Origin: Ginglymostoma cirratum | Lineage: Eukaryota | Direction of reading: 5' to 3' | Length of the DNA: 64,000 bases | Assembly: GCA_024137785.1 (NCBI GenBank) | Contig: JAHRHZ010000018.1 | Span: forward strand, 38,550,112 to 38,614,111 | In this document: in pieces, positions 3,897 through 48,384 of the stretch | Position numbering within the stretch: the first letter of the stretch is position 1 | Layout: every line of letters starts with the position of its first letter | The notes under the pieces: generated by a model | Databases searched by the model: none | Told to the model about the DNA's origin: nothing | The model's input: only the letters and a program-made list of their open reading frames with translations | Translations under genes and position numbers: made by a program

Positions 3897-4035
3897 CCTG
3901 GGATCAGGTAAAGCCAGGACCAATTTGTGTGGAATATGTCAATTCAAATTATTTAAATTGATCCTTCATTATTTGACTTACCCTCTTCTTGTCTTTTTAT
4001 GAGTGCTCCTATCTATATGTTTTGCTGTATAGGTG
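3897..4035. repeat. Left arm of a perfect 139-bp inverted duplication
   Basis: Exact reverse complement of 6281-6419, checked base by base. Confidence 0.95.
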
Positions 4036-6280: not shown

Positions 6281-6419
6281 CACCTATACAGCAAAACATA
6301 TAGATAGGAGCACTCATAAAAAGACAAGAAGAGGGTAAGTCAAATAATGAAGGATCAATTTAAATAATTTGAATTGACATATTCCACACAAATTGGTCCT
6401 GGCTTTACCTGATCCCAGG
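6281..6419. repeat. Right arm of a perfect 139-bp inverted duplication
   Basis: Exact reverse complement of 3897-4035. Confidence 0.95.
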
Positions 6420-6678: not shown

Positions 6679-9189
6679 GCGAAGGTACTTTCTCAATGTT
6701 AACATTATTAGTGTGGAGAGACTTTAGAGATCAGGGAATGTAATGCTTCCTTGGGATATTTTACTGCCTTAAAGGTGTGACATAAATGAATGTTGTTGAA
6801 GTCAGGGCAGGTGAGCATTGTCAGTTTTGTATCATACTATTCACATAATCAAGAAACAGGTGCCTACGGTTCAATTTGTAGAGTTAACACTCAAGATAGG
6901 TCAGATCAATGTCTTTCTGCTTAGGATAGAAAAATGGTATTTTTTTAAAAATGGTGCAGGTCAGGTCGCTGAACGTTTTAGCATTAACTATGTAGTTGGT
7001 ACCAAGAATCAGCAGCTCAATGAAACCACAGCTACAGCCTGAATGAATAAACTGAATAGTGCAGTTACCATCTTGGAAATGGCTACTTTGCATGTCAGCA
7101 TGACTCACATCATCTTTGTCCTCAGTTTTGCATCTGAGCTGAACAAAGGAAAACAAGCAGCCAATACTTGATAAAGGGATGCATTATTTTTGGCTACCTA
7201 ACATTAACTGTAATATTAATGTCACTCGTGCCTTTTATTACTGTCCAAAAGACTTTTTCTACGTGACTGAATGAGTGATTTAATTTGGACAAATATTAAG
7301 CAGATTGCTGTTTGTCGTTCAAATGGGTTCCATTGCTTTTGCATGAAATATTTCTTTTAAAAGATTTCTCACTCTTCACTGAATTGAGTCTGTAAGCTGC
7401 ATCTGTCTTACCACTGGCAACAAAGTCAAGAGGCATGAGGCTTTTTGTAAGTTCTCCAATCCCAAAAGACTTTTTATTACTTTGCATACTGTGAAATGTC
7501 ACCTTTTGAGCAAGCTGTTGCAATGTTTTCTCTGCGCCAAAATGTGAAACCTCAGAGGACATGAATTAATCCACTGTTCTCAGTGACAGCATTTTAAAGG
7601 CATTAGAAGCCTCAGGCATATCTGACACACACAGTGCAATGCAGAACAGAAACTGCTAGCTACAAAGAACTTTTTCTGAATAGCAAAGTGAACTAAATAA
7701 CATCTTCTTTTAGATGATTGCTGTGAACATTTCAACCTAATGTAGATCACATTTTATGGGCTGCTATTGATGTTGATCTAAAGCGCACAGAACTATAAGA
7801 AGTAATCGACACGGATTTCACATTATCATAGAATGTTGCACAGAAAGATTCAGTCAAACAAATCTGCACCACTGCCCTTCTCCTTGAACCTTTCAGGCTG
7901 ACCCCAGACTCGTTCACAGATATTTAATATCTCCTTTTATCAAGTAACTATTTAATTGTCTTTTAATAGAACCTTATGAATTCTGTTTTAAGAATAACTT
8001 GCACCACTTGCCAGCCTTTCCTTCAACTCTTTTCCTGATTTTATTAAATTTGTGTTTTCCCTACTCAGTGTTTTATAATTATATATTATCACAAGCCTTC
8101 AGAATTTGTAAGAAGTTTATCAAGCCTTCTCAGTTGTAGTGAAAAACCTGCTTACAGTGAATTAGAAACAATGGCAATGTCTCTTTATACTTTGATACAG
8201 AGTACTTGTACATTTTTTGTTACACCTTTCCAGTTGGATAAGCAACAAGGGAACAAATAGATGTTGCATTAAAAGAAATGGTGGGAGTGTGACCTTTGCT
8301 ACAAAGAGGTGGATTTTTATAGGTGGTCATAATGGAAGAAAGCTGGAGTGGCAGAGGTTATTGGGAAGAGAATTCCAGGTGGCACACCAGGTAAACAGCT
8401 AAAATGAGAGTACCAGCAGTGGAACGAACAGAGATGGGATACACAATACAGCAGAGCCCAAAGACCATTGAATTCAAGCAGAAGTTGTGGAACAAACGGA
8501 CATTGTATTGAAAGTGAGGAGTGAAGCCAAAAACAAATTCAAAATCGAAATTATGAGGATATGAGTATTTAAGGATACAAATTTTACATTTGGTACTTGG
8601 GAACTCAGAGCCAATGTAGGTAGTTAGGGCAACAGTGATGAATAAGTAGAAATTCTTGTGGGATAAATTAGGGACAGCAGGGTGAACTGGATTTTAAGGA
8701 GGGTGAAGGATGATCAGAATAGCTTTGGAATAATTGAACCTGGAGCTGATAAAAGCATGTTGAGAGTTTCCGTGGAAGATGAGCTATCTTAGATGGAGTG
8801 AGATTATAGAGGGTAAAATTTGGGACAGAGGATATGAAATCTAAGGTCATCTCTAAATTAAATAGGACAAATCTGGTTTGGCCTGATACAGTGGTGATGA
8901 GGAGGAATGGACTCAGCTGGAAGAAGTTTGTGTTCAGGGCTTTGGTCTTTCCAACGTTTAGCTGGAGAAAACTTTAACTTGCCCAAGATGGAGGACGAAA
9001 GGTGTGCAGCAGGACCAGGGGCCTCATTATACCAGCATCTTCCAATTAAATGGATGATATGCTGTCTTTCTAAGGACTGTAACCCTATGCCCTCAACCAA
9101 TTAAAACTTACACTAATCCTAGAACCAACAGATTAGCAGCCTCAGCAGCGCCTCCATTAACAATGGCTATTGCTGGAACTGTACCTCGA

Positions 9190-10240
9190 GAATGGTAAAA
9201 CTGGGGCCCATGTGGGTATCCATAGCCACAGCTTTCACCTGAAGAAAGTGAGAGGAGTCAAAGTAGAGGTTGTTCAAAGTGAGTATGAACTAGGCCAGGT
9301 GGGGAATGGTGGCGGAGGATTGGGATTATTCAGGACATTTTCCCTGGAAGAAATAGAGAGGACTGAAATCATCCTGATGAGGCACAGACATGTAAAGGGA
9401 TTGCACGTTCTTGGTAAAAAGGAGATGGCTGGAGCCTGCAAACTGAAAATTCTGACATTGATGTAACGTGGCAGAAGAATTGCAGAAAGAATTGGGAAAG
9501 GACTGAACAAGGGGATAAAAAAGGTTGGAAGAGAGTAAGTTCTGTGAGGCAGGAGCAGGCAGAAACAGTGGGTCTGCCTGGGCAGTCCCTTTGTGAATTT
9601 TGGGAAGGAGGTAGAAGCAGGCCGTGCGGGGTTAGGGTCTATGAACTTGGAGGCTTTGGGGGGCACAGGGAAATCACCACATGAGATTAGTGACTCTTGT
9701 GGACACAATGGCTTGATGTTCCATGGTGGGGATCATGTCCGGGAGAGATAGGAGGAGATAGCTGAGAGATGGCACTCAGCTTCCAATGTAGAGGTCAATC
9801 TGCCAGACAACAACAGCACCAACTTTGTTGGCAAGTTTGATTACAAAGTCAGAGTTGGATCTGAGAGCAGTCAGTTCAGAGGGAGATAAGTTTCAATGGG
9901 TGAGGGCAGCAGTGAAATTGAGGCTGCCAATATCATGTTGGCAGTTCTTGATGAACAGGCCAAGTGCAAGTAAAATGCTAAAGGGAGGATTTCAGGCAGA
10001 GGGAGAGTGTTGCAGCTGGGTGAAGGGGCCTGTGGGATGGGGTGGGGACTCCTGTCAAAAGAAATGGAATAAAGATGATGGAAGAAGAGTTCAACATCAT
10101 GTCATGCCTGAAACGTTTTGAGCTGGGCCATGAGAGGGATAAAACTAATGTATATCTTGTAGTCGATAGGCCAGATGGGAAGATGGAGCAGCTAAGATTG
10201 CTGCTTATAAGGAGTTGGTCCTGATGCTGTAAAGAACAAC
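9190..10240 (-). mobile_element. Old Penelope-like element reverse-transcriptase fragment (disrupted)
   Basis: The minus strand near 9200-9300 translates to FILTLNNLYFDSSHFLQVKAVAMDTHMGP, a decayed PLE RT motif (F.F....YLQ..GVAMG..MGP); stops are present. Confidence 0.6.
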
Positions 10241-11310: not shown

Positions 11311-12045
11311 TAGGCCATTGCCTATTTGTTGAGATGGGGCTATCTGTGGATTGGCCAGTCGAAGAAAAGTGTAACAGAACCGTAGCCAAGGGAAGCAGGT
11401 AACAGCAACTTCACAAGTATTTAGCAGCTTACACAGCAGGAAGGGATCACTGTTCATCCAGCGCTGAGCAAACCAGAGAGAGGAATAGGTGAAGTACAGC
11501 CAGGATTAAAGGCTCAATGGAATTGTGGAATAAAAACACCAGAGACCAGTGGAGGAACAAGATTTGTCCCTGAAGAAGGCAGGAATCCTGCACAGGATTC
11601 AGAACAGCAATCCTGGCAGGAGAAACCATTAGAGCACGGGTACAATGAATGCAGGAGGCAACATGTGGTGGGTTGGGCACTGAATGCTGTTAGCAGTTAA
11701 AGCTGACAAGATTGAATAGAACAGCAGAGCCACAGCAGCCGAGCATGCAGTATCCTCCATCTGAGCAGTCTTGACCTGTTGGCAGAGGCAAAAATCAAAT
11801 GGGAGTAGAGTGCCAGCAATAGTAAAGAGCACAGTCAGAAACACGGAATAAACTGGGTTGAGGAGGATGAGTTATGTGTTCTGCATTGAAATTGTGGATT
11901 GAGCTAAAATATACACAAAATGGATCAGGAACACGCAGAGATGCAGTCGAGACATTGGAGAGTAGAAATGTCTAAAACCTTACCTCAAACACTACCTGTC
12001 CTGCACGTGGTACAGGCTGCAATCTGAGCATCTCAATATCCAGTT

Positions 12046-12135
12046 CTGAAGAAGAGTTACTCCAGGCTCAAACTCTAACTCTGTTTCTCCCTCCAGACCT
12101 GCTGAGTTTCTCTAGCATTCTCCGTGTTTGTTTCA
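12046..12135 (+). mobile_element. Short PLE-derived terminal repeat with degenerate hammerhead core
   Basis: CTGAAGA-AGAGTT...GGCTC-AAAC followed by taactctgtttctc...agacctgctgagtttc, as in the 19.8/22.9/48.3 kb copies; the GAAA box is damaged. Confidence 0.55.
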
Positions 12136-12772
12136 AAACCCATCAAATTGGAATGGAAACATACCACCCTCAATCCAGAGGGGCAGCCTCAGGAAGCTGA
12201 CTCATTGTCAGGAATAGGGACCTTAAACATGGAAGCGACTAAAACAAAAAGGAGAAATGGTAATGTATGGATTTACAAGTAGAAGAACTCAGGGACACCA
12301 TCTTGAGTTAGCTGCTTTGTCCTGAGACTATAGAGGTCACTAAAAGTAGTGTTTACTGCTCACACTATCCAAAGATAAATAAAGGATATACTTGACTGCA
12401 ACTTACATGGCCAATGACTGATGTTATGGAAAGTTGTAGTAGGTAAAGGGATTAGGACAACGGCTAAGGAATAGCAACTGACTATTGTAGGATTAAATAT
12501 GGACTAGAAACAGAAACAGTGAAGGGCATTTTTAATAGGAGCAAAATGGGTTTTTCACACTAGCTAGAGAACCAGATGTCTGAAGTTTATTAACAATTAA
12601 CAATGAACATTGATAGGACACTTCAGACTTACATACAGTCAAGGTTATGTGCTTACTTTGATGAGTACTATATTATCTACATTGTTGACTGGCTGTCCAG
12701 AGATTAATATGGAGGTCTTCTATACTAAGACATCACACGTCATGAAGTCATCCAGCTGTCTTATAGGTACAG

Positions 12773-12865
12773 GGATATCAAGGTGTAGAGCTGAATGAAA
12801 CCAGCAGGCCAAGCAGCATCAGAGGAGCAGGAAAGCTGACGTTTCAGGCCTAGGCCCTTCTTCAG
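12773..12865 (-). mobile_element. Solo PLE terminal repeat with hammerhead core (12838-12865)
   Basis: Minus strand CTGAAGA A GGGCCTAGGCCT GAAAC GTC AGC..., homologous to the 3' ends of the GIY-YIG elements at 14.4 and 42.1 kb. Confidence 0.8.
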
Positions 12866-13172
12866 GGCCTTTCTGAGATCTGCACAATAATAGAACAAAT
12901 ACAATGCTCACAAGTCCTATGTTAAGCCATAATGTGAGAAATCTCCTCACTGTGTACACATGTTTGGAATATATACATTTTTAAAATAAAAAATGACAAA
13001 TACAATGGCAAACTGAGTCTTTTAAAGATCAGCTGAAGAAATACGTAACTAGTTATGGGATAAGGGAAAGTTTCAAACAGATGATCAAATACTCTATGGA
13101 GTAATCGAGATAACAAGCATGGGGCTGGATGAACACAGCAGGTCAAGCAGCATCATAGGAGCAGGAAAACTC

Positions 13173-13200
13173 GACGTTTCGGGCCTAAACCCTTCATCAG
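13173..13200 (-). ncRNA. Minimal type I hammerhead ribozyme core (mirror copy)
   Basis: Exact reverse complement of 13230-13257. Confidence 0.7.
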
Positions 13201-13229
13201 AAATGAAACCCTTTCATCAGAAACCCTTT

Positions 13230-13257
13230 CTGATGAAGGGTTTAGGCCCGAAACGTC
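13230..13257 (+). ncRNA. Minimal type I hammerhead ribozyme core
   Basis: CUGAUGA A GGGU-UUAG-GCCC GAAAC GUC: conserved boxes, 4-bp stem II, palindromic ACGU in place of stem III, GUC cleavage triplet. Stem I is weak and activity is untested. Confidence 0.7.
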
Positions 13258-13434
13258 GAGTTTTCCTGCTCCTATGATGCTGCTTGACCTGCTGTGTTCA
13301 TCCAGCCCCATGCTTGTTATCTCGGATTCTCCAGCATCTGCAGTACCTTTTATCTCTTTTAACTCTATGGAGTAAGTTTGTCCTGAGACCAGACCATGAA
13401 AATGCCATTTGTTGGAACGTAGTTTTTTAAAAAT

Positions 13435-13750: not shown

Positions 13751-14422
13751 CCATTCTAAATATATGAGACAGAAACTAGCCTTACATGCCCCAATTTTCT
13801 CATTTCTGATCTCTCACTCAACACTTAATAAGCTTGAAATTCTGCCACATGTAATCTATCCAACTCACCAATCACTATTCCATATTGGCCTTCAACCTAT
13901 CCCAAACACCTTAATTTTCAAAGTTTTATCCTTGTCTGTATATCTTTATGTCACTCCACCTCAGCAGGATGGTTGGTGGGGGGGCAAGTATCAGACAGGT
14001 TGACAGCTCCTGGCAGCAGGAAGTCCTCCCTCTGAGGTCCCACTGTTCACTAAACTAGCACAGCTACAGCATGTTATGGCTATGCAGCAGGCACTCTCAG
14101 AGCAGCACGGCGTTCAGCTGACTGTCCTTCAAGGATAGGGGTGCAAGAGCGGTCCACCCCTACTCATAAAACGCAACCTACGATGTACTTCAAACTCCAA
14201 CTTTGCATGCACCTCTCTTGGCCCACAGTCCCAACTCTAGAATACCATTCCAAACCCAACTCTCCCCCTTGCCTCCATTCAGTTCCTCAAAAACTCTTCC
14301 ACCAAGTTCCTGAGCACTCTTCCTATACTTTCCTTTCTTAGCTCAAAAGCTATGATTTGTAATCCTATCCGCAAAGAACCTCGCAGCATTTTCGTATTGA
14401 ACATTCTATACGAATTAAAGTT

Positions 14423-15222
14423 AACACAGTGTAGAGCTGGAGGAACACAGCAGACCAGGCAGCATCATGGGAGCAGGAAAGTTGACGTTTCAGGTCGGGA
14501 CCCTTCTTCAGAAATGGGGAGGGGCAAGGGAGCTCAGAAATAAATAGAGAGAGGAGGGATGGGGCTGGGGAAGGTAGGTGGAATGGTGATAGGTGGGTGC
14601 AGGTAGGCAGTGGTGGGGATTGGTCAATGGGATGCTTGGACCAGACAAGTGGGAGAGAAGATGGACAGGTTGTGTCAGGTCAAGGAGGTGGGGATGAGAG
14701 GGAGGGTTGGGCATGGGTTGAGGCCGGGGTTGGGGAGATTTTAAAACTGATGAGCTCCATGTTTAGGCCATCGGGCTGTCAGCTCCTAAGGCGGAATATG
14801 AGGTGCCGTTCCTCCAGTTTATGTGTGGTGTCATTGTGACACTGGAGGAGGCCCAGGATGGACATGTCACCCAGGGAGTGGAAGGCGGAGTTAAAATGTT
14901 GGCAACTGGAAGATGTTGTCATTTGTCGCAAACAGAGCGCAGATGCTCTACGAAACAGTCTCCATGTCTATGCTTGGTTTCACCGATGTAGAGGAGGCCA
15001 CATCAGGATCAGCGGATACAGGAGACCAAGTTGATGGATGTGCAGGTGAACCCCTGCCTGATACGGAAGGTTTGTTTTGTGCTTTGGATGGAATTGAGGG
15101 GGGAGGTGTAGGGACAGGTGTAGCACTTCCTGCAGTTGCAGGGAAAGGTGCCAGGGTGGTGGGGTTAGCGGGGAGCGTGTTGTCTCTGACTCCAGCATCT
15201 GCAGTTCTTGCTATCTATCACC
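14423..15222 (-). mobile_element. 5'-truncated Penelope-like element: GIY-YIG endonuclease remnant, 3' repeat with hammerhead core (14484-14511) and inverted tail
   Basis: Homologous to 42150-42980; CTGAAGA A GGGTCCCGACCT GAAACGTC on the minus strand; tail in opposite orientation at about 15178-15217; imperfect 15-bp TSD (13/15) at 14408-14422 and 15223-15237. Confidence 0.85.
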
Positions 15223-16129
15223 ATACAAGTTAAAGTTGTTCTTGATGGTAGGGTCAATTGGTCTTATTCCATGGAAGGGACAAGCGTTATTGGTAAAGTG
15301 GCCTTATCTTGTTTCATAAGTTATTTTTTTCTAACTGCAGATCCTAAAGGTGAAGAAAAGAACAGATGGAGTCAAGCCAAGATTTTTATCAGCTCAGTCA
15401 TCTCCACACTGTATTAGTGAATGGAACCTCACCAATGATATAGGACCCCTGGAGGTATATTCTCCGTTAGTTTAGCATCAAAATTCAGTTCAGCATTGTG
15501 TTTGCACTGCTGTCTTATGTCAAGAGACAATTTGACCACAAAACTTGAAAGTTATTTGAAACAGGATATTTCAGGTAAGACAATTTATTTGTGCAATTTT
15601 GAAAAAGGAATGCCTTATCTATTTAAAAAAGAGCTCACTCTTAAAGATATAGCTTCCAAGAAACATCACAAAAAGTACTTTGCTGCCGACAATGGCAAAA
15701 AAAAATACAAGATTTGTATTTTGATAGAGAGAAAATAACTTAAAATAAATGTTTGTTTCCCTTGATAATTTTAAGAGCTGAGTTTACATCTAATAACATT
15801 TGTTGTAAATATGCTTCCATTTCCGCTGCAGAATACAATCACGTTCCCTTGTTGGCTAGGGAAACTTGAATGACACTTAAACTGTGAAAATACCTAGATT
15901 TTGCAATATCTGAAGCAAAGGCGTGGGGAAAAATTTCATTTGCATTTTCATCCATTTGCCTGGTACGTATCCTGCTTTTTGTAAATTGGATATATAGTGA
16001 TGGGAGCATTGTGACATGTATCCAGTTTACCCGTTTCCATCAGTATTTGTGAAATCAATTTTTCTGTCTATTCAGAATGTGGAAAATGTTACTCAAGGTA
16101 GTGTCCATTGGATGTTCTCTTCAGTTGCT

Positions 16130-17045
16130 TCATTAGTGACTTTCCCTCCATCATATGGTCAGAGTGAGGATACTTGTTGATGATTGCGCATTGTTCAGCA
16201 CCATTCCCAACTCCACAGGCAGTCCATGTCTAAATGCTGCAAGACAAGGACAATATTCCAGTGTGGGCTGATAAGTGACAAATAACACTTATGCCACTGA
16301 GGCGCCAGGCAATGACCATCTCCAACAAGACAAAATCTAACCATTGCCCCTTAACATTCATTGACATTACCATCACTAAATTCCACGCTGTCAATATTCC
16401 GGGGTTACCATATATCAGAAACTGAACTGTACTAGCCATATAAGTACTGCAGCTATGAGACAACTCAAAGGCTAGGAATCCTGCAATGTATAACTTACCT
16501 CCTGACTCTCCAAAGCCTGTCCACCACCTACAGGGCATACGTCAGGAGAGTGATAGAATACTCCACACTTATCTGGATGGGTATAGCTCCAACGACACTC
16601 AATAAGCTTGATGCCATCCAATGCAAATCAACCTATTTGATTGGCATCACATCCGCAAATATCCACTTCCTCCTCCACTGGTACGACAGCAGTGAGTACT
16701 GTCTACAATATACACCGCAGAAATTCACCAAAGCTCCTCAGAACACGTCTTCCAGAACCATGACCACTTCCATCTAGAAGGACAAGAGCAGCAAATACAT
16801 GAGAACACCACCATCTACAAGTTCCCCTCCAAGCCATTCAACATCCCGACTTGGAAATACATCAGCATCCCTTCAGTGTCACTGGGCAAAACCCTGGAAT
16901 TCCCTCCCTAAGGGCATTGTGGGTCTACCTACAGCACATGGACTGCTGCAGTTCAAGAAGGCAGCTCACCACTACCTTCTCAAGGGCAACTAGGAATGGA
17001 TGATAAACTGCGGTGAAGTCAATATCCCATGAATGAATAAAAAAA
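16130..17045 (+). mobile_element. CR1-clade LINE 3' fragment (RT C-terminus to A-rich tail)
   Basis: Decayed (F)ADDC motif near 16175 and typical end aaggcagctcaccactaccttctcaagggcaactagg...catgaatgaataaaaaa. Confidence 0.75.
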
Positions 17046-17885: not shown

Positions 17886-18075
17886 AAAAATAAAATTTTG
17901 TAGATTCTGGAAATGACAAGAAAAAACTGAAAGAACTGGAGATGCTCAGTCTGTCAGGCAGAGCATCTGTGAAAAGAAGCAACCAGATGAAGGGTTATGC
18001 CTGAAATGTTAACTGGTCACTTCTCCACAGATGCTCTGCCTGATTCACTGAACGTTTCCAACATTTTTGTTTTGT
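17886..18075. mobile_element. Old fold-back PLE-derived element with degenerate hammerhead on the plus strand
   Basis: Inverted arms tcaggcagagcatctgtg (about 17954-17971) and cacagatgctctgcctga (about 18026-18043) around cagatga-agggttatgcct-gaaatgtt. Confidence 0.65.
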
Positions 18076-19752: not shown

Positions 19753-19893
19753 AAAAACTGAAAGAACTGTGGATGCTGTAAATCAGGAACAAACACAAAG
19801 TTGCTGGAGAAACTCAGCAGGTCTGGCAGCATCTGTGAAGGAAAAAACAGAGTTAACATTTTGGGTCCGGTGACCCTTCCTTCCATCCACTCT
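19753..19893 (-). mobile_element. Short PLE-derived terminal repeat (second family) with degenerate hammerhead, inserted into an L2-like remnant
   Basis: Minus strand ggaagggtcaccggacccaaaatgttaactc...; TSD ATTGTG(C/G)ATGGTT at 19740-19752 and 19894-19906. Confidence 0.75.
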
Positions 19894-22832: not shown

Positions 22833-22993
22833 AAAAACTAAAAGAACTCCAGATGCTGTAAATCAGAAACAAAAACAGAAGTTGCTGGAAAAGCTCTTAG
22901 GAAGGGTCACTGGACCCAGAACGTTAACTTTGATTTCTCTTCACAAATGCTGCCAGGCCTGCTGAGCTTATCCAGCAACTTCTGTTTCTGTTT
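22833..22993. mobile_element. Fold-back PLE-derived element (second family) with 9-bp TSD
   Basis: aaacagaagttgctggaaaagctc versus gagcttatccagcaacttctgttt; hammerhead remnant ggaagggtcactggacccagaacgtt; TGTGTATGA at 22824-22832 and 22994-23002. Confidence 0.8.
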
Positions 22994-23049: not shown

Positions 23050-24409
23050 ATATATATGTATATCATTAAAGATGGCAGGACATGTGAAGAAAGCTGTCAA
23101 TAAAACATTCAATATCCAAATTGTATTAATTGTGGCATACAGAACAAAACTTGAATCACTAGTTAAGACATTACCTTGCTGATTGCATACAGTTCTGGAC
23201 ATCTTCGAGAAGAATGTAAAGGCATTGGACAGTGTGCAAAAGGGGTTTATGAGAATGGTTTGAGGGATGAGAATTTTCAGTTGTGCACATAAATTGGAGA
23301 TATTGGCGAGGAGAAGGCTAAGATGAGGCTTGATAGAGAGTTTTAAAACCGTGAGAAGACTAGATCAAATAAATAGGGAGAAAATGTTCCTACTTGTGAA
23401 AGGAGTGAGAATTTGATGGTTATTTGAGAAGGAACAAAGTTCAAGGTTATAGGGAAAAGGCAGAAGAATGGCTTTAGGTGAGATGTTGATTTGGAGAGCC
23501 AGCACACACAGAATAATCTTTCTACACAGCAACAGTTCTATGATTCTGTGATGATGATAATTTTTCTGCAAGAACTAAGATAATTGCCCACAAGTTTTGG
23601 CAGTCTTCAAATGATGGATTGTTGAACATGCCTGCAACTTATACAATGGCAAACTTTGACTCAATGCATGTTCTGTGTAGTTTTTATGTCTTAGAACCTA
23701 AAATCAGCAGAGTTTCTCAGTTATCAACTTCTTGGGCACTGTGTCCATTTAATTGAAATTATTGTTGACTTTTGCCTAGTTAATAGGTATAACATATACT
23801 CTTCAAGGGGAATTTAACTTCAGGGGAGAAGCATCAGGGATGAAAGGTATATACTTCCAAACAATTCATCAGCTACCAATTTGAGTTAAAACAACAATCC
23901 AATATACCAGACCTGCTTGACATATAATCCAGGCTGTTACTCCGGTACACTACAAAAGGATTGCTAAATTGTTAAGGGATGCCAGCACTTGTACTGCCTA
24001 CAATTCTCAACTCTTCTGCTCCGGTGGCAGCTGTAAACACGCTTGCTTACACAGCGTCAGAAAACTCCTCCTGCAGTAGTTGAATATTAAATGTTTGAAC
24101 AGTGCTGAAGGGAGCATCTGCACTGTCTAAACATTTACATTAATTGCAGGCAGTTTTTAAACCAGGTTTGAGATTACACTGGATTTAGATTCGATGCTCT
24201 GTCAATTCAAAGCAATGTCAGAATATGTCTAGAAAATCTCAGACACTCTGAGGTGTCGGGTTGGGACTGAATTTTCAACTTGAACAGTCAGATGGATTTT
24301 GGTTTGTGCCTCTTTTCAGTTCAGATCACCTGCTTCCCAGGGCAGAGGGCTGCAGGGCAAGTACTAAGAAGGGACTTTGGAGCAACCTGACACCTTTGCA
24401 GAAACATTT

Positions 24410-24506
24410 CTGAAGAAGGGTCCTGACCCAATAATGTCAGCTTTCCTGTTCCTCTAATACTGCCTGGCCTGCTATGTTCCTCCAGCTCCACACTGTGTTA
24501 ACTCTA
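24410..24506 (+). mobile_element. Solo PLE terminal repeat starting exactly at the hammerhead CUGAAGA box, 11-bp TSD
   Basis: CTGAAGA A GGGTCCTGACCC aataatgtc (GAAA damaged); CAGAAACATTT at 24399-24409 and 24507-24517. Confidence 0.8.
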
Positions 24507-25739
24507 CAGAAACATTTTGTTTTAAAACACCTACCTCTTGTTGGTGGCCACAGCAGCTGTTGAACAGTCCAGGGTGCATTTACGACAACCCCTGCCCAGC
24601 AAAACTTTGCTTCTGGAATACTAATTTACACATTTTAGGTATCAAACGCTCAATTTCAGACCAAAGAACTTGTTTCTTTCTGCAAAGCAGAAACTGGTCT
24701 ATCCATTTCAGTAGTTTAGAGTACAGTACAAGTTCTGTGGCACTATTGAAGAGATTTCCTAGTGTTCTGATCAACATAATAAAACCAGAAAATGCTAGAA
24801 ATACTAGCAGTAAATACTCAGAACTAATTTAAGAGCTCAAAATGATATCCCAGTTGCTTTCTACACAGTGCAATGTTCACGTTCTTTGAATTCCATCATT
24901 TGCAGTATTTTTCTTTTAGATTTTTGTGCTGATTAACAATCTTCTCTCAATCAATGTCACCTATAGGCAGTTGCATTATTCATGGCGGTTCGTGGACAAT
25001 CATGAATTTGTGAAATGTCACTCATTTAGAATGGTGATCTTTGACAATAAAGCAGAAGTCCTCCGTGTAAGACATCTTGCAATGTTTCAGCACAATACGT
25101 ACTGTATTAAATCATGTTTTTTATTGCATGAAAATTAATCAAATTAATTGCGAACAAAATAATTTTCTTTTACAATTTCTGCAGCCTTATTAGTTCTTGT
25201 CTTCAATGTGTCAGATGTTTTTGGAAGAATTAATTATTTTTGCCCCGACTCCCTCCAATGCTAAAATTGTGTGTTCCTAATTAAAGTAAAGTGCTTGCTA
25301 ATGCTGCAGCAAAGTGTGCCCTCAACTTTGCCCTGACACCTCGCTTTAATGTCAAACACAGAAGAGTACTTTCCATTGTTTGTGATTCCCCTCATCCCGT
25401 CCATTTCTGATCCTTGTAACACTGAGATTCACTCACCATTACTAAAAAGTAAATCGAACATCAAATTTCTGGGACTGCATATAGTCATATGGAAATGCTT
25501 CCCACCTTGTCCTGCTCCTCCAAAACCTGTACTGTAGCAGCATCCTCATTGAGGGATCTAGCACTGGAACCCATGAAAGGGGTATGAAGTTGCCAAACTG
25601 ACAAGGAGAATTCAGGGATAGTACATTTGAAAATGAATATTTCTAAAAATGTGTAAAGTGTTAATTACTGCCCAACAACTTCTAGCTTTGGAATTTTACT
25701 TTTCTAAGCAATCTCATTCCTTCAAATATTGTTTTTAAA

Positions 25740-27120
25740 AACTTTCCTTCACAGCTAGTAGGCATTGAAAGCTGGGTCGGGGATTTTTTTGTCATTCCAT
25801 AACTGCCTTTGACGTAGCAATGAGATGTCTTCTTGAACTGCTGCAGTCCATCTGATGTAGGTACACCCAAACTGCTTGCCAGAAAGGGAGCTCAAGAATA
25901 TTGGTGGAGTGACAACGAAGTAACAACAAAGTTATGGTAATATATGTCTTGAAGTGCAACTTGCAGGTTCTGGTGTTTCTCTGCATCCGATATGAACGTC
26001 CTTTGAGATGATAGCCGTGTGGATTTGTAAGGTGCTGGCTAAAGAGCTTTGGCAAATTCCTGCAGTTACCACTATGCGTTGGTGGTGGAGGGAGTGAATG
26101 TTTAAGGTTGTAGATATGGTGCCAATTAGGAAAGTTACTTTGTATTGGATGGTGTTAAGCATTTTGAATGTTGTTGGAGCTACATTCATCCAGGCAAAGT
26201 GGGAGTATTCCATCACACTCCTGACTTGTGCCTTATCAAAGGAGGACAGGCTCTGGGGACACAGGAGGCAAGTCACTTGCCATAGACTTACTAGCTTCCG
26301 ACTTGCTCTTGTAGCTACCGTATTTATGTGGCTATTCAAATTCAGTAGCTCGTTAATGGAAACCACGAGGATGTTGATAGTTGTGGATTTGATGACAGTA
26401 ACGTCACTGAGTATTGAACAGATAGATAGTTAGATTCACTCTTGTTGGAAATGGTTACTGCCTGACACTTTGCTGGTAACGTTTACCCATTATCAGCCCA
26501 ACTCTGAATATTGGACACATCTTGCTGCATGTGGGCAATGACTGCTTCAGTATCTCAGGAGCTGCAAATAGTGGAATTAACATTGTGGAATTAACATTGT
26601 GGAATCAGTGAATGTCTCCAATTCTGACCTTATGATAGAGGGAAAGCTATTGATGGAACCACTGAAGATGGTTGGATGAAGACAATAAACTGAGGTCCTT
26701 GAACTGAGATGACTGACTGGCTTCAACCACAATGATCTTCTTCCACCTCACCCCAACATTTCCCATTCGCTTCAGTTATGTTAGAGCTGCATGATGCAAC
26801 TTCCCCACCGAGAATATAATTTCTACCCTCTACCATCGGGTTTCTTCCAATTGGTGTTCAACATGGAGGAGTATTAATTCATCAACTGAAGATAGGAAGG
26901 GTGAATGATAGAAACAGGTGTCAACCAGTAGGCGGATTTCTTACACACACACACTGAACCTGATGCTATCAGAGTCCATGGGATACAGAGTCAATGTTGA
27001 TGCCTGCCAAAGCAACACTCTCCCATCTAGGCACCAACTATATGCTGGACTATCCTGCTGCTGAGAAAGGACATGCTCAAGGATGGTGATGGTGGTGTTC
27101 GGGGCATTATTTGTAAGATA
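25740..27120 (-). mobile_element. CR1-clade LINE fragment
   Basis: ORF 25932-26366 contains KAQVRSVMEYSHFAWMNVAPTT, the same family as 16.1-17.0 kb. Confidence 0.75.
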
Positions 27121-27180
27121 TGATTACTGGGTAATATGATTAATGTTTGGTGCTTTTTAAGCAACACTAAAATGTTCAAG

Positions 27181-27853
27181 AGATAACAGGGTGTAGAGCT
27201 GGATGAACACAGCAGGCCAAGCAGCATCAGAGGAGCAGGAAGGCTGACGTTTCGGGCCTAGACCCTCCTTCAGAAATTCTNNNNNNNNNNNNNNNNNNNN
27301 NNNNNNNNNNNNNNNNNNNNNNNNNNNNNNNNNNNNNNNNNNNNNNNNNNNNNNNNNNNNNNNNNNNNNNNNNNNNNNNNNNNNNNNNNNNNNNNNNNNN
27401 NNNNNNNNNNNNNNNNNNNNNNNNNNNNNNNNNNNNNNNNNNNNNNNNNNNNNNNNNNNNNNNNNNNNNNNNNNNNNNNNNNNNNNNNNNNNNNNNNNNN
27501 NNNNNNNNNNNNNNNNNNNNNNNNNNNNNNNNNNNNNNNNNNNNNNNNNNNNNNNNNNNNNNNNNNNNNNNNNNNNNNNNNNNNNNNNNNNNNNNNNNNN
27601 NNNNNNNNNNNNNNNNNNNNNNNNNNNNNNNNNNNNNNNNNNNNNNNNNNNNNNNNNNNNNNNNNNNNNNNNNNNNNNNNCTGGATGAACACAGCAGGCC
27701 AAGCAGCATCAGAGGAGCATCAGAAAATTCTGAAGGAGGGTCTAGGCCCGAAACGTCAGCCTTCCTGCTCCTCTGATGCTGCTTGGCCTGCTGTGTTCAT
27801 CCAGCTCTACACCTTGTTATTTCAGATTCTCCAGCATCTGCAGTTCCTGCTAT
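27181..27853. mobile_element. Fold-back PLE-derived element with hammerhead-like core on each strand, 16-bp TSD, spanning an assembly gap
   Basis: 27181-27276 is inverted relative to about 27727-27822; cores at 27246-27273 (-) and 27730-27757 (+); CACTAAAATGTTCAAG at 27165-27180 and 27854-27869. Confidence 0.85.
27281..27680. other. Assembly gap (400 N)
   Basis: Run of N. Confidence 1.
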
Positions 27854-30743
27854 CACTAAAATGTTCAAGTTTGTTTTGTCACCTTTTTCCCTCATATTTC
27901 TCTCTCTCACTTTCTGGATTTGATTAGAAATTATATTAATTAGTCTAATTGACATGTCCTACTTCAGACTCTGCGCTGCTCATTAATCACCCTTCAATCT
28001 AACTGGTTAACTTCCTTGCTGTGTTCATACTTTTCCTAAAGCATCTGTAAAAGATGCCAAGCCAAATTGGTTTCTAGGTCCCACTGTAAAAGCCCTTAGG
28101 GATCTTGTGAGCAAGTGTAAGTGTAACAAATAATGTTTGCTGCTGACCATAAAGTTTGCCCTTTTGTCTTGGAATTCAATTATTCATTGCGGAGCAACTC
28201 CTTGCTCTGCACTAAGGGGAGGATTGGTACTGCCAACCTAATAGACGCAGCTCCCAGACTAAAAGAAAGGAAACCTTTACCCATCATTCTGCCCTGGATT
28301 AAAACTTAGACCCTTAAAATGCATTAATCTACTGTATTATCTCAATATCTTCCACAGCTGGTTTGCTGAGGTACAGGAAATGGACAGCCCGTGAAATCTT
28401 GGTACTTCCCTCATTATCAGTGTTTTTCAAACATTTTATATGGGGATCTTACTGTGGTGACTCCTGGCAAATAGTAACTCACTCTCAAGAACCACCTGGT
28501 CTAGACAGTTTCAGTTTGCAAAAATTTAAATACTTATTATTGTAAATTCTCTATGGGTGTAATAAAACAAAATGCTATTTAGTGGAAAAGAAAGAAGAAC
28601 AACTAACAGAAGACAAACAATGGTTGGACCTCCATGAATTCCTTTTGCAAACCCCTGTCAGAGTACCTCAGCTCAATACTGAAGTTCTGCCCAGCTTCCA
28701 TAGTTTCCAAATAAAACTGTGAACATCATGAATAATCACTGATAACTAGACTCGTTATAATTACTGAAACTTGGAAAAGTTAAGTTGGCTTGTAATTTAG
28801 ATGTATATTTTCATTTGCCAGATAATTTCATTGGCAGAAGTGCCTTTATACAATTATACATTGTCTAATTTTAAAGTGGTATCTGGCCAATTAACATGTT
28901 CACCCAATCTGAGACTGTCATCTATGTTCATTAACAGGGTAATTACTGACGTTGGCTCGGAAACATAAAATGTGAGGCTACCTAAGGTCACAGAGGGTAA
29001 TGAAATTGGAGAAAGCAGCATATTTCAGTTTACTGAAATTAACAACATGGAAATGAAGGAGGAAGTAATCTGCCAATGACAAAATCTGAAGTTAAAGGTG
29101 GTGAATTGAACTAAGGATTATGTGTGGAATTTGAACTTTTTGTGGAGATTTGGCTCTTTTGGTAGTCAAAAACATTGATCAAATTGCAAGAGCACTGCTA
29201 GTGAGGCATTTAAAATATTGGAATAGCAAATTATTTAACTGCATTTCCCTTTCCAAATAATTGATCTGTTAAATCTTTCAGTTAAAGGAAATTTGGTTAT
29301 CTGGAATGTACAAGTGCTAAAGTAATGATGCTTCATCTGCTCCAACATTTGTCTTTTTTGAGTGCAGTTAAAAATGTATGAATATTTTTATATGTTAAGG
29401 AAACAAAGGGTTAATCACATATATGATGTATTCTTGCACATGCCTTTACATCGAAGCCTTAACTACAGAATTCCTAAGGGAAGCAATACATGTTGCTTCT
29501 GTGCAAATAAATGACTACTCAAGATAATTTAGAAATGGCCCATTATTCTCTGGTGATGTACACGGGAGAATGCAAGTGAATGGCAATGTCAAGGAGTGGA
29601 ACATTTGAAATGGAAGTGTGATGGTCAGTCTGTGATAGAAGATTGTTTTCTTGGAATGTTGTTAGTTTAACTTCCATTTTGGAAGTTATCAAATTGGAAC
29701 ATTAATTTCTGTTGTCTCTTTTCTAGCTCATGCTACAAATCTTAAAAAAAAAAGTTTGATCCATAAAGCACCATGGTTAGTTGGAGCTCTGCCAACTGCA
29801 GCTGTGGAAATGATGATTCCAGTAAAGGACTCCAACCATCCAAACCGGGAGCTGGAACCAAGACTAATACTCCCTTTTACGCTGGTAATTGCTCCCATTT
29901 GTACTATGACAGTACGATTTCAATTAACATTGGGATTTTCAATTTTTGGTACACAACTTTGCTCTAATTTTGCGTGAGACTTGTAATTATTAAAACACCA
30001 CATCATCACCAGTAAATACTATTTTTCAAAAGGCACTTTGATAGTTCTGGGACGTTTTGGAGGAAGTTAGACAGGTTTTTTAAAATTAGATTCAGATCTA
30101 AGACTGATGGGTCTGTCTCTCCTTTACACTATGAAGGTGCTGAAAACATACAATTCATAATGATAGCACCAATCAGTACTCTTACTCAGACATGATAGAG
30201 AATCCAGAAAAATGCTACTGATGTTTCATTTTGGGAGGTAGTGTCAAAATACATTTTTAGAACACAGCATAATGAGTTTTACATCTCCCACAAAATTTAG
30301 AAAAAAAAAAGTCTCATTTTTAGACACTATAAAGTTGTACACTGATATAAAATGATACAGGCTTGATAGTAAATAAAATTCAGTGTTGAACAGAGACCTG
30401 AATAAACCAACATTCCACATTTCATTCTACAACTTTGTAGATTTCATTGAAGTAGGATTTCTGAAAAGTGCTGTTAATACATTACAATGAATTCCTCCTT
30501 CACAGGTAGTTATGGATTTAGGCCTGAGAGCTTCACACTAACTGCTTTAACTCCATGAATAATGATATCTTCTCAACATGGTTGCTAATCTCTATGTGAA
30601 AACTACATTTGTCTTGTCATGGTGAGGTATGGATAATTTCTAAAACATATTTTGATCAAGAATTCAAATTATATTATTACAAAAAAGTACATTAAATTGT
30701 CTAGAAAGAAGCAAACTTACATTGCAGGTAATTTGTAAACCAT

Positions 30744-31214: not shown

Positions 31215-31325
31215 TTACCTCTTTACTCTGGACCAATCCAATGTAGAGAAGAATGGATGTGATTTGATATCTTCAAAACCTGATACACCAGCACCAAGCC
31301 TCTCACTGGGATTGTACTGCAAAAG
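31215..31325 (-). CDS. RPS6KC1: RPS6KC1 last coding exon LLQYNPSERLGAGVSGFEDIKSHPFFSTLDWSRVKR*
   Basis: Hand-translated; CAG acceptor at 31326-31328, TAA stop at 31215-31217; matches the C-terminus ERLGAG...EDIKSHPFF..DW. Confidence 0.95.
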   Translation of the reverse strand, partial: LLQYNPSERLGAGVSGFEDIKSHPFFSTLDWSRVKR

Positions 31326-33539
31326 CTGAAGATGAGGAAAACAAAAGTATCACACAGATCCTCTAGTGGAACTGATTCTGTTACAAATGCTGCTGAATAT
31401 ATACATTCTATATTTATACTGAACCCAATCACCCTTTTCATGAGATAACCATTAAATAATACCCTTTTCTTTCTTTTGCTGAATAGTTCCAATAACTTCA
31501 AAATTAATCTGATTTACAACTCACTATCATCCTTACCTCTATCACTGATGAAACAGTGGGCAGTACAAGTTTAATGCTTTATAATAGCAACTTAGTCTGC
31601 TTGGACTTATTCTATAAGGATCTGTCTATGCATACTGTCCTTTACATCTGAGTGAAAATGTTTCCACAATTGGTCAATTCAATGACCCCAATATTTTTCA
31701 ATGAACTTCAATTCATCACATTGTCTACTGTATATAATAGTTACCACGTAGATGAATTAATTCACATTTTAAATTTTATGTGACCTCTCCTGTTGATTTC
31801 TTTCTGAACAGCATCCATCTGTTTGGAATTATCTTCTTCACACAACTAGATAGTCAGCTGTAATACTGCTGTTGAGGTCCTATTCAATGATCATAAGTGG
31901 TTGGCGAAGGTTTGAAAACCAATTCTTCAGGCCCCTTGCTTGTCACAATTCCAAATGAAATTGCTGCAACTGATATCTAGGACACTTTTTATGTACTGAC
32001 TGCTAATTCAATTGATATCTATTGTTTTGGATCTCAGGGGCTTTCACTCATCAGGAAGATTCCTATGACAGATTCTATATTTTCTACTAATAAGAAACAC
32101 AATAATCACCAGCTTACCGTCGTCACCTATTCTGTTCAGTCATTAGATAGATCTAATAGATTTTTTACAGCATAACTTGCCTTTCATAAATGGGTATTGA
32201 TTTGGATTAATTGCACTCACTCTTGCTAAGTGCTGCTCTTGATCACTTTTCTCTGTACAGGCTTTCAGTACAAACATCAGAATAAGAGGTGGAGATGCAC
32301 AAGATTATGCTTCTGATTCATTTAGAAAGTCCAGTCACTTGATTCAAACTTTGCATCCAGCACTTTTACAAAAGATTCTACAATGTTGCACTTCCTATTT
32401 CTATATTATTTTGTTCTGTACTCTCATCAGCAATTCTTTCCTCAGGCAGCACGTTCCAGTGCAGATAAATCCAGTCATCACTGTATCTGAAGTTATACCA
32501 TCTCTTTTCATTAATATAATTATCAACACTTCAAATCCAGCCACATGAAATCAACCTTCAATACTCAATTATGTGCATTATAAACTAAAAGATTTACAGC
32601 TTTTCCACGCACTGTGCATCATATTATAACCAATTCCACATTAGACCAAGGAGGAATTTACACCAGCACAAAGGCTGCTCTTAACACTAGCAGTGGGATT
32701 AGACATTTCACTCTTGCTGTTATGCTGATCTGTGTAGACAGCAGCAAATGATTCTTAATTAATTTACTTTTCTTACCAGTTGCTCATAAAACAGAAAACA
32801 TCACTAATCAGCTGATACACACTCAAGCATTCAAAAGCCACAGCAATGCTTTTCACCTAAGAGCTATCAGGAGAACATATTATTCTGAATAGGAATGAAA
32901 GTCAGAAATTAGTGGTGCTAAATCCATACATTAAACAAGATAATTTTAAGTGGAGTAGCCTGTAAAGAGAAACATAAGCACCAGAACTAAATAGGTGGCA
33001 TATCCAACTTTTTTCCGTATCTTTATAAGTGTTCTTTAGCAGCTAGGTTAAGTGCAACTTGCTTTTCTTGCTGGAAAATCAATGCCGTCAATTTTATTTT
33101 ATTAGTCTTCAATCACCAGGATACGGTAGCTCAGGCAGCCCCATTTGTAAATTACCTGAAACTACTATCAAATAAATGCATTTGTACAATTTTTTTTTAT
33201 TCTAAGGAAGTATATAGAAGGGTTAGCGCATTTCTGGTTAAACTAATTTTGCTGCGTTTAGTTTAAATGCATGGCACTGTTGGGCAGGAATTACAAATTT
33301 TAATTTTCTTGTGATCATATAATTTGCCAATGAAGAAACATTCAGGATTTACCATAATCATTTTAACAAAAATGTTCATCTTCAATTGAAAGTCGAATAA
33401 TAAAACTAGAAAATTAGAGCTAAATAGTTAGAAATATTGCATGCTGAGGAAAATGAAATTTATTTAGAACAGCCATGCCTAAGATTTTCAAGTTGATAAA
33501 TTAAATGTTTCATTGTAGCATCGGCCACAGTACAGCATT

Positions 33540-41790: not shown

Positions 41791-42215
41791 CAAATGATAT
41801 ATCACTCATCTCTGCAGTCCAATCTGAGATCAGCAAGTACTGGGGATTCTTTCTTTGCAGTGCTCAATTAAGGAATGACAAGACTGAGGAATCCCAGTTG
41901 AAAACTGGGAGAGCCCAAGGGCGTTCAGGAGCCTGGTAGAAACATACTTGTTTCTCCTGGCACCCTAGAGATTCAAACAGAGGTAAAGATTTTAAACTTA
42001 CATTGGTAATTTTGGTTGGTCAGCTTCTCCTCTCATACTTCTGCTCCCAAATAGCACAGAGCATGAACATTCACTTCCTGAATATTTAACATCAAGCTGT
42101 GGTGTCAATTGCATCAGAGATAAAAGGTACTGCAGATGCTGGAGAATCCGAGATAACAAGCATGGGGCTGGATGAACACAGCAGGTCAAGCAGCATCATA
42201 GGAGCAGGAAAACTT

Positions 42216-42243
42216 GACGTTTCGGGCCGAGACCCTTCATCAG
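42216..42243 (-). ncRNA. Minimal hammerhead ribozyme core, sense to the RPS6KC1 pre-mRNA
   Basis: AUUU CUGAUGA A GGGU-CUCG-GCCC GAAAC GUC AAGU: all core nucleotides present, and a 4-bp stem I is possible. Confidence 0.72.
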
Positions 42244-42483
42244 AAATGGGGGAGGGGAAGAGGGTTCTGAAATAAATAGGGAGAGAGGGGGAGGCGGATA
42301 GAGGAGAGGATAGGTGGAGAGGAGGCAGACAAGTCGAAGAGGCGGGGATGGAGCCAGTAAAGGTGAGTGTAGGCAGGGGGGTAGGGAGGAGATAGGTCAG
42401 TCCAGGGAGGACGGACAGGTCAAGGGGGCGGAATGATGTTAGTAGATAGGAGATGGGGGTGGGGCTTGAGGTGGGAAAACAGG

Positions 42484-43068
42484 TTAGGGAGGTGGAGATG
42501 AGCTGGGCTGGTTTTGGGATGCGGTTGGGGGAGGGAAGATTTTGAAGCTTGTGAAATCCACATTGATACCATTGGGCTGCAGGGTTCCCAGGCTGAATGT
42601 GATTTGCTGTTCCTGCAGCCTTCGGTTGGCATCACTGTGGCATTGCAGGAAGCCCAGGATGGACATGTCGTCTGAGGAATGGAAGGGGGAGTTGAAATGG
42701 TCCGCGACTGGGAGGTGCAGTTGTTTGTTGCGAACTGAGCGCAGGTGTTCTGCGAAGCAGTCCCCAAGCCTCCGCTTGGTTTCCCCGATGTAGAGGAAGC
42801 CACAACGGGTACAGCGGATGCAGTATACCACATTGGCAGATGTGCAGGTGAACATCTGCCTGATGTGGCAAGTCTTCTTGGGGCCTGGGATTGGGGTGAG
42901 GGAGGAGGTATGGGGGCAGGCGTAGCACTTCCTGCGGTTGCAGGGAAAAGTGCCGGGTTTGGTGGGGCTGGAGGGGAGTGTGGAGCAGACAAGGGAGTCG
43001 CGGAGGGAGTGGTCCCTCCGGAAGGCAGATAAGGGTGGGGAGGAAAAAATGTCTTTGGTGGCAACCAA
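42484..43068 (-). pseudogene. Truncated PLE ORF: GIY-YIG endonuclease domain, reading frame still open
   Basis: PCNRRKCYACPH...NVVYCIRCTRCGFLYIGETKRRLGDCFAEH...VADHFN...QPNGIN has the VVY/YIG, R..EH, HF and GIN motifs of PLE GIY-YIG endonucleases; the RT domain is missing. Confidence 0.88.
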
Positions 43069-47259: not shown

Positions 47260-48090
47260 GGTTGTGTGGACATTACTGCCGTCTGAAATACAACCTTTCA
47301 GAACAGATCTTGCATCTCAAATCCGGTCATCCCCATGTATAGTGGGCTGTCAGAGACAGGTAGACTCGAACCCAGATGTTTCCTTTTGCCGATGTAGGGA
47401 CACCACCACTGTGCCACGAGGCCCAGCAGAGCTATTTTCAACCCCACGGCCTGGCATACCACCTCACCCCACCATTACCATCAATGGAAGTGTGCGCCAA
47501 AATTCAGCCAGAAGCACCAAAAAGATTCAGTGGCCTTCCGAGGTCCTCAACATCCCAGGTGCCAGTAGCAGGTCAGAGGCTACAAATCCTGCAGAATGTT
47601 AATAACCTCCTGACCCCCTAAATCCTGTCCACCATCTACAAGGGGCGAATCAGGAGCATGATGGAATACACCCCGCTTGCCTGGATGAGTGCAGCCCCAA
47701 CGACCCTCAAGAAGCTTGACACCATCCAGGATAAAGCAGCCCACTTGACTGGCACTACATCCACTCGCTCCACCACTGACACGCAGTAGCGGCAAAGTGT
47801 ACCGTCTACGAGATGCACTGCAGAAATTCACCAAGGGTCCTTTGGCAGCGTCATTCACACACAGGATCTCTTACATCTAGAAGGACAAGGACAGCAGACA
47901 GACGGAAACACCGCCACCACCAGCTGTAAATTCCCCTCCCAGTTACTCACTGTCTTGACTTGAAAATGTAACCCCGTTTATTGAGTGCTATTGGGCCAAA
48001 TTCCGCTAACTCCCTCCCTATGACTGTAGTGGTTGAAGGCAGTTCATCACCATCTTCTCAAGGTTAACTAGGTATGGATAATAAATTTTA
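47260..48090 (+). mobile_element. CR1-clade LINE fragments
   Basis: ccaccatctacaagg...atggaatacaccccgcttgcctggatg (TIYK..IRSMMEY.PLAWM) and the family 3' tail. Confidence 0.7.
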
Positions 48091-48264
48091 GTAAAAGCTG
48101 GTCCCATGTACAAATAAAACATAGTTTTCTAATTCATTCATGGTGCATACTAGGCACAGCAAGAGCTATAGGTCCTGAAAAAAATCATGCTGTTGTGGTG
48201 AAGACTTGTGCTCCAGAACTAGCTATGCCAAGCTTATTCAATACAACTACCCCACAGCCTTGAA

Positions 48265-48384
48265 ACTTCACAGGTCTGGCAGCATCTACGAAAAAAAATC
48301 AGAACATTTCGGGTCCTGTGGCCCTTCCTCAGAACAGATTTTTGTTCCTGATTTACAGCATCCACAGTTCTTTCAGTTTTTATT
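48265..48384. mobile_element. Short PLE-derived element (second family): hammerhead-like core on the minus strand (48303-48332), inverted tail, 10-bp TSD
   Basis: CUGAGGA A GGGCC-ACAG-GACCC GAAAUGUU; CAGCCTTGAA at 48255-48264 and 48385-48394. Confidence 0.8.

Follow-up and report, generated by a model that had tools for sequence, protein, structure and literature searches.

At 13105–13361 of the window, as we call the whole stretch of 64 kb that was analysed, lies a fold-back unit of 257 bp built from two copies of the end of a Penelope-like element (PLE). Two segments of 98 nt (13106–13203 and 13227–13324) are exactly complementary and enclose a spacer of 23 nt (13204–13226). The left arm is an antisense PLE-end copy (minus strand) that reaches from the 5′ edge of a hammerhead core to the first, tail-less 3′ end; its PLE match runs 2 nt past the complementarity and occupies 13106–13205, and a single extra base at 13105 lies outside it. 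The right arm (13227–13324, plus strand) is a sense copy that begins 3 nt ahead of C3 and is followed on the same strand by a one-sided PLE tail (13325–13361), of which 33 nt (13325–13357) match the parent element and the last 4 nt are extra. The unit is flanked by 14-bp target-site duplications (TSDs) at 13091–13104 and 13362–13375 that agree in 14 of 14 positions; this 14-mer occurs nowhere else in the window, and its TSD score of 14 lies above that of all 300 random flank pairs used as a null (maximum 10). These coordinates confirm the arms, spacer, one-sided tail, TSD and total length claimed in an earlier note on this DNA, with the tail resolved into 33 + 4 nt. The description ‘non-coding’ applies loosely, as the longest ATG-started open frame of the unit measures 52 codons on each strand.

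Arms and TSD show 0 differences in 112 positions, which corresponds to a pairwise divergence below ∼2.6%. Because of this identity the insertion is probably young, although hairpin arms can be homogenised; the perfect TSD around both arms agrees with the single recent insertion that had been proposed. The folded hairpin reached −220 kcal/mol (z −29 against 200 shuffles). Arms that are 100% identical could also stem from an assembly artefact or from a fold-back duplication by DNA repair after insertion, and a 400-N gap inside a similar hairpin at 27.2 kb as well as an unexplained perfect inverted repeat of 139 nt in the window speak for such an origin. However, both arms are bracketed by the perfect 14-bp TSD, the inverted arm shares its stop at the first 3′ end with solo and inverted relatives, and the length copied by a fold-back should be arbitrary, with tail or flank included. 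We find this explanation scarcely credible.

The junction insert (13206–13226) consists of an 18-nt re-copy of 13187–13203 (with one extra T) that overlaps an 11-nt repeat of 13205–13215. The spacer is made up of these two re-copied arm-end pieces in this order and contains no foreign sequence. We take such a templated insert to be of the end-joining kind and presumably the work of polymerase theta. A second copy of the spacer with up to 3 mismatches was absent from the 64-kb window, so that the search for spacers shared between loci, which the earlier note had recommended, returned in this range nothing beyond the spacer itself. A GTDB scan yielded 0 loci, GTDB being uninformative on shark repeats. 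The left TSD end (13091–13115) resembles the PLE just past its first 3′ end (42133–42158; ∼8 of 10 positions with one gap); priming may have been aided by this microhomology with the PLE sequence, a likeness that is absent at 27.2 kb.

The right arm together with its tail shares 97.0% identity over 134 nt with 42116–42249, the 3′ end of a GIY-YIG PLE, in line with the near-identity noticed before. This long copy (42L, 42116–43062, minus strand) is the left, tail-bearing arm of an inverted long insertion and comprises the end of a Neptune-like GIY-YIG ORF, a CX4CxxC linker, the 3′ UTR and a hammerhead. The right arm of the same insertion (42R, 43064–43824, plus strand) is tail-less and carries an internal deletion. 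The GIY-YIG match in the 42-kb ORF (E 0.0019) is below the Pfam cutoff; the ORF shares 89% identity with a protein from the whale shark, the more remote matches of that protein carry an RT domain, and the RT core is absent from the 42-kb copy itself. A CX2-5CxxC linker (here CX4CxxC) was found at residue 49 of the frame. Such a linker between RT and EN is diagnostic of the Neptune and Nematis clades (PMC8557442; here and below, published work is cited from the available part of each text), and the sequence of the parent PLE suggests a Neptune-like element. Pfam searches with 12 other long frames of the window gave nothing above cutoff. At 9170–9409 (minus strand) lies a decayed fragment that aligns with the RT region of the shark PLE protein at 49% over 80 aa.

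Between the arms of the 42-kb insertion there are 35 substitutions in 638 columns. A small indel marker of 42L is common to the 13-kb arms, while 42R matches other subfamilies at this position, a hint that two RNA templates may have contributed to one insertion. A synonymous-bias test for two templates was negative, with 2 synonymous and 11 non-synonymous changes at 42 kb as under neutral decay. A direct origin of the 13-kb RNA from 42L was discarded: 42L departs from the 13-kb arms at 3 of 93 positions, whereas these arms are mutually identical. As host gene we identified RPS6KC1 (minus strand; 90% identity to the zebra shark protein), and the host is carpet-shark-like. The 3′ exons of this gene span 31218–60249 (minus strand), and the PLE inserts at 42.1 and 48.3 kb lie in the intron 35074–58068. 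The last coding exon is located at 31218–31328, and the 13-kb unit lies ∼18 kb past the stop codon.

Using profile and BLAST searches we found 11 PLE-end insertions in the window, at 12.0, 12.8, 13.1, 14.4, 17.9, 19.8, 22.9, 24.4, 27.2, 42.1 and 48.3 kb; the reversed-sequence control yielded 0 hits, and a 39-nt duplicate at a gap edge (27681–27719) and a 20-nt match at 57.7 kb were left out of the census. TSDs scored above the null in 7 of the 11 insertions and marginally at 42.1 kb, while none above the null was detected at 17.9, 12.0 and 12.8 kb; their length varied from 9 to 16 bp. Inverted pairs make up 7 of the 11 insertions, and all seven junctions differ. Six of these pairs join an arm that extends to the first 3′ site with a tailed arm, the exception being the pair at 48.3 kb, where the tail-less arm stops ∼20 nt early. 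A second short fold-back of another subfamily (27165–27869) bears a 16-bp TSD, a tail on the right arm and its own junction; its arm differs from the 13-kb arm at 14–15 of 94 columns. It contains the 400-N gap, past which part of the left arm recurs, probably reflecting an assembly problem at a near-perfect palindrome. An older inverted insertion (14408–15237) combines a long tail-less left arm, which has the same TATA-like spacing as described below, with a tail-only right arm and a TSD matching in 13 of 15 positions. The solo short arm at 24399–24517 (plus strand) reaches from the 5′ edge of the core to the first 3′ end and has an 11-bp TSD. As the seven junctions differ and the 13-kb spacer is templated and single-copy in the window, these sequences favour independent formation at each insertion over the copying of a hairpin unit, within a sample of 64 kb.

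Further PLE ends were noted nearby. A short minus-strand arm at 12771–12890, for which no TSD was found, lies 225 bp to the left of the 13-kb unit, and the few bases that come next resemble a deleted right arm in its start and tail; the core of the short arm, which lacks helix I, has the same sense as the left core of the 13-kb unit at a distance of 335 nt. Short ends of more distant PLE families are located at 17920–18074, 19753–19892, 22833–22993, 48262–48382 and 12044–12135. They show variant cores with longer helix II loops, and three of the five are inverted pairs.

The 11 insertions comprise 18 arms, four of which are too short to contain the core; 14 pass the cleavage site. Among these 14 arms, 11 end at −5 to +4 of C3 (offsets were read by hand from the alignment), none stops between the C3 edge and a point >650 nt upstream, and the other three run >650 nt further. 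Under a geometric truncation null the probability that 11 of 14 ends fall into any 11-nt window is 0.013 for a mean of 20 nt and 5e-6 for a mean of 50 nt; for the nine arms of the lineage with known upstream sequence the corresponding values are 0.24 and 0.012, the cluster alone being weak evidence there under the shorter mean. No single truncation mean produced the cluster and the long arms together in 200,000 draws. The remaining five arms belong to more distant families whose parental upstream sequence lies outside the window; in four of them a junction or TSD defines the 5′ end, which is uncertain at 12.0 kb. Because the 5′ ends pile up at one point, arm truncation was probably not random. 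The earlier note had offered as one option a recurrent product of extreme 5′ truncation plus inversion; the recurrent product finds support here, whereas truncation in the sense of a random event probably does not apply. Two other sources of the ends were rejected: the short arms start 23–32 nt upstream of the cleavage site, which is incompatible with ribozyme cleavage, and no AG precedes the respective point in the long copies, which argues against a 3′ splice site at helix I like that of D. virilis. In the literature searched, including passages of PMC8969392 and PMC12602865, we found no account of short copies with a fixed 5′ end at the hammerhead, older key reviews and repeat databases not being covered.

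The pile-up suggests that the arms are run-off cDNAs ending at the 5′ end of the transcript. TATA boxes and initiators have known consensus sequences and a known spacing. In the C/T-rich 3′ UTR of 189–263 nt the sole TATWWAW match lies at −31 in all three long copies, which represent two subfamilies; the reference for this spacing is the A four bases ahead of C3, and its context is initiator-like in two of the three copies (42R lacks it). The TATA-like box starts at 42278 in 42L (minus strand, putative +1 at 42247) and at 43697 in 42R. Together with the initiator-like site it is among the longest exact blocks common to the two diverged subfamilies, and no indel separates the two. From this arrangement we consider it rather probable that the PLE RNA starts at the initiator-like A below the TATA-like box. 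Points against this position are the missing match in 42R and another initiator-like match, present at −26 in each long copy. A bacterial promoter scan gave nothing, its model not being relevant to a eukaryote. On the opposite strand (42270–42278, plus) the TATA-like box corresponds to an AATAAA-containing stretch and could double as an antisense polyadenylation signal.

The fixed 5′ end might instead mark a point within the same type of PLE insertion at which RT pauses or breaks off, either at a C-rich tract or at the folded hammerhead. The long copies have a C-rich tract whose start lies exactly 5 nt upstream of C3, three of the 14 arms do extend >650 nt past this point, and the window contains no excess of the TATA-plus-initiator pattern (3 matches versus 1.05 expected; 9 of 100 shuffles reach 3), which also counts against the start site. 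However, the boundary is hard on its upstream side, because at most one C of the tract is present in any arm, and the two longest exact blocks of the two diverged subfamilies are precisely the TATA-like box and the initiator-like site. We regard pausing as possible though unlikely.

A related element likewise speaks against the TATA-like reading: D. virilis Penelope uses an internal, TATA-less pLTR promoter and carries an intron between the start site and the hammerhead (PMC2377424). Such an internal promoter would suit an explanation in which the short single arms constitute a SINE-like non-autonomous family and the fold-backs arise from two RNAs at one site; the solo arms with TSDs at 24.4 and 19.8 kb start at the same point, and the disagreement of the 42-kb arms at the marker common to 42L and 13 kb hints at two templates. 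On the other hand, the short arms fall into several subfamilies with no sign of a separate short lineage in the window, and the 13-kb arm is nearest to the long coding copy (3 differences in 93 positions) compared with 14–24 differences from any other short copy. We give this family little credence.

The presence of a hammerhead core with a palindromic helix III on both strands, as had been claimed, was borne out by pattern matches at 13174–13200 (minus strand) and 13230–13256 (plus strand). The window contains eight such matches versus 0.13 expected, six of them outside the 13-kb unit. The left core, of minimal type I (13173–13200, minus strand; C3 at 13200), is predicted to be cleaved after 13173, and the minimal right core (13230–13257, plus strand) after 13257. 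In the left core, helix II has 4 bp, an extra A stands between 9 and 10.1, helix III is palindromic without a loop, and helix I has 4 bp, two being G-U; helix I of the right core has just three pairs, again with two G-U. The cores contain the core boxes, the extra nucleotide 9/10.1, G10.1-C11.1, the palindromic 15.2-16.2, the short helix I and the NUH site described for the minimal type I hammerheads of metazoan PLEs (PMC4209133). They deviate from the Schistosoma families of the same account in helix II, which has 4 bp here and 7–8 bp there. Hammerhead pairs on opposite strands were reported from Schistosoma in 2014 at distances of 100–700 bp (PMC4209133); the C3 positions of the 13-kb cores, also in opposite orientations, are 30 bp apart.

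Rfam models, a check proposed in the earlier note, returned no hammerhead family in three of three scans (E up to 1, 10 and 10); the matches obtained were below threshold and mostly miRNA-type hairpins. Across 13 core copies pairing was retained at 94% in helix II, 92% in helix III and 71% in helix I, and covariation in these helices did not rise above shuffles (51–128 of 500 shuffles reached the observed values). Single arms folded no better than shuffles (z −1.5 to +0.8, six sequences). In unconstrained two-arm co-folding all seven arms tested adopted a helix-II-swapped duplex instead of the active double hammerhead, which lends no support to activity. Minimal hammerheads have been described as not cleaving as monomers and as cleaving at a low level as dimers (PMC4209133).

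A co-transcriptional folding switch, as suggested earlier, is unlikely according to our folding model: since the unit is arranged head to head, the antisense arm is transcribed ahead of the ribozyme strand on either strand, and helix II never forms. For each of the 14 prefixes that contain both nucleotides of the G10.1-C11.1 pair, its probability was 0.0000, and in growing transcripts, folded at equilibrium and not by kinetic simulation, the core was already paired 12 nt past C3. Each strand of the unit holds one sense core, whose loop-less helix III requires a partner. Because the TATA-like box is absent, each strand has one sense core and this core is buried in a 98-bp duplex, the 13-kb hairpin should by these calculations neither self-cleave nor serve as a switch. 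The two hammerheads are likely to be passengers of the PLE insertion. The hairpin is a possible source of dsRNA, provided that the locus is transcribed, and by analogy it could then be edited like the palindromic repeats of frogs (PMC5625713).

A near-symmetrical short unit with a perfect TSD, a second short fold-back at 27.2 kb and the existence of PLE-derived non-autonomous retrozymes (10.64898/2026.07.22.740005) would all fit a self-propagating palindromic ribozyme-MITE or retrozyme whose entire hairpin is transcribed and re-inserted as a unit, the other option raised previously. However, the spacer is made of re-copied arm ends and is unique in the window, the 27.2-kb unit represents another subfamily with another junction, and the seven inverted insertions have seven different junctions. 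Furthermore, the ribozyme is sequestered, the upstream TATA-like box is missing from the unit, and the TSD lengths of relatives range from 9 to 16 bp. This option is highly improbable, although a rare family of identical fold-backs might exist outside the window. Animal non-LTR retrozymes resemble the 13-kb unit in being short, non-coding, hammerhead-bearing and derived from PLE pLTRs with longer TSDs, and they are present in the one cartilaginous fish sampled (PMC7229834; bioRxiv 10.64898/2026.07.22.740005). They consist, however, of head-to-tail tandems with same-sense ribozymes that release circular RNA, whereas the two arms at 13 kb face each other head to head and each strand contains a single, buried core; we did not assign it to the retrozymes, as its cores lie on opposite strands and head-to-tail same-sense units are lacking. 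MITEs and the palindromic Harbinger repeats of Xenopus (PMC5625713) share with it a short palindrome able to form tight dsRNA. In contrast to these, the unit shows no transposase-type ends, a TSD of variable length and an asymmetric tail, and a classification as MITE was rejected on account of the 37-nt unpaired tail at its right end and of the 9–16-bp TSDs of its relatives without a fixed length.

The unit is an inverted PLE insertion, an architecture that has already been published. The typical Penelope structure has been described as a TSD-flanked insertion with an inverted pLTR and a tail of 31 bp at one of its ends (PMC3846280), and an inverted pLTR with a one-sided tail of 30–40 nt and a TSD is general to PLEs (PMC8557442). 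The same combination of an inverted pLTR-derived copy, a tail on one end and a TSD, found in EN+ PLE insertions such as Pen2a_Av, the scheme in Figure 2 of PMC8557442 and form C of D. virilis Penelope, is present at 13 kb. Unlike in those elements, the 13-kb copies are cut to ∼100 and ∼135 nt, contain no ORF, form one hairpin over the whole insert and have both 5′ ends at the same point. Inversions of L1 by twin priming are likewise inverted, truncated and TSD-flanked retro-insertions. Twin-primed L1 insertions combine two different stretches of a single RNA, whereas at 13 kb the same stretch was copied twice.

The closest functional comparison is PAc, a PLE of the lizard Anolis that belongs to Poseidon, whereas the 13-kb parent is Neptune-like. 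In vitro, both target strands are cleaved and extended by PAc, RT is initiated internally at two positions on either side of the tail, and the hammerhead, which requires protein, is dispensable for insertion (PMC11167929). The shark arms resemble this system in their two 3′ ends ∼35 nt apart downstream of the hammerhead and in insertion into two strands. They differ in that the ATG frame of the core closes after 15 codons at 13 kb, while the PAc ORF starts at stem II, and the available part of the PAc account describes no fixed 5′ end of short copies (PMC11167929).

We think it likely that a Neptune-like Penelope-like retrotransposon produced the 13-kb unit as a dead-end insertion, a type of product that recurs. 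Its mechanism, including the use of uncleaved RNA, is modelled on the related PLE PAc (Poseidon, not Neptune). The GIY-YIG endonuclease would nick both target strands 14 bp apart; here the TSD is observed and two-strand nicking is adopted from PAc. RT inside the element RNA would then be primed by each nick, once from the first start site and once from a position ∼35 nt closer to the RNA 3′ end, so that only one of the arms receives the tail; this difference between the arms is observed, and its link to two RT sites again follows PAc. Both cDNAs would end just 5′ of the core, most likely by run-off at the RNA 5′ end; the pile-up is observed, and motif position places the putative start site at the initiator-like A 31 nt below the TATA-like box of the terminal repeat. 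Finally, the cDNA ends would be joined head to head, and end joining would re-copy arm-end pieces into the spacer; the templated junction is seen in the sequence and the joining enzyme is presumed.

There is about an even chance that strong-stop-like cDNAs of ∼100 and ∼135 nt, alone or as head-to-head pairs, are the dominant insertion product of shark PLEs. An internally initiating RT would start at tail sites near the RNA 5′ end and run off 4 nt before the core, and a dimeric RT would account for the head-to-head pairs; 11 of the 14 arms in the window would be of this kind. If true, this would explain the thousands of solitary and opposite-strand minimal hammerheads, make uncleaved RNA the in vivo template, let the genome itself map PLE start sites and imply that many perfect hairpins have been seeded. 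As a single locus the 13-kb unit matters little, being a promoter-less, probably silent PLE by-product ∼18 kb beyond RPS6KC1. Its value lies in being a clean, young and minimal example that records both RT start sites, the spacing of the nicks and the joining step of an integration mechanism that is still poorly known. Should the pile-up at the hammerhead edge occur genome-wide, it would offer a simple, testable explanation for why PLE-rich genomes contain many isolated minimal hammerheads, and it would speak against the ribozyme as the origin of the ends of inserted copies.

Two further types of repeat were observed in the window. The perfect 139-nt inverted repeat occupies 3897–4035 and 6281–6419, with its halves 2.2 kb apart and no further copy in the window; it may be an artefact of the assembly or the result of a recent inverted duplication. 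A dispersed repeat that is LINE-like by appearance is located at 718–842, 16459–16997, 26138–26410, 47567–48075, 52489–53070 and 57015–57620.
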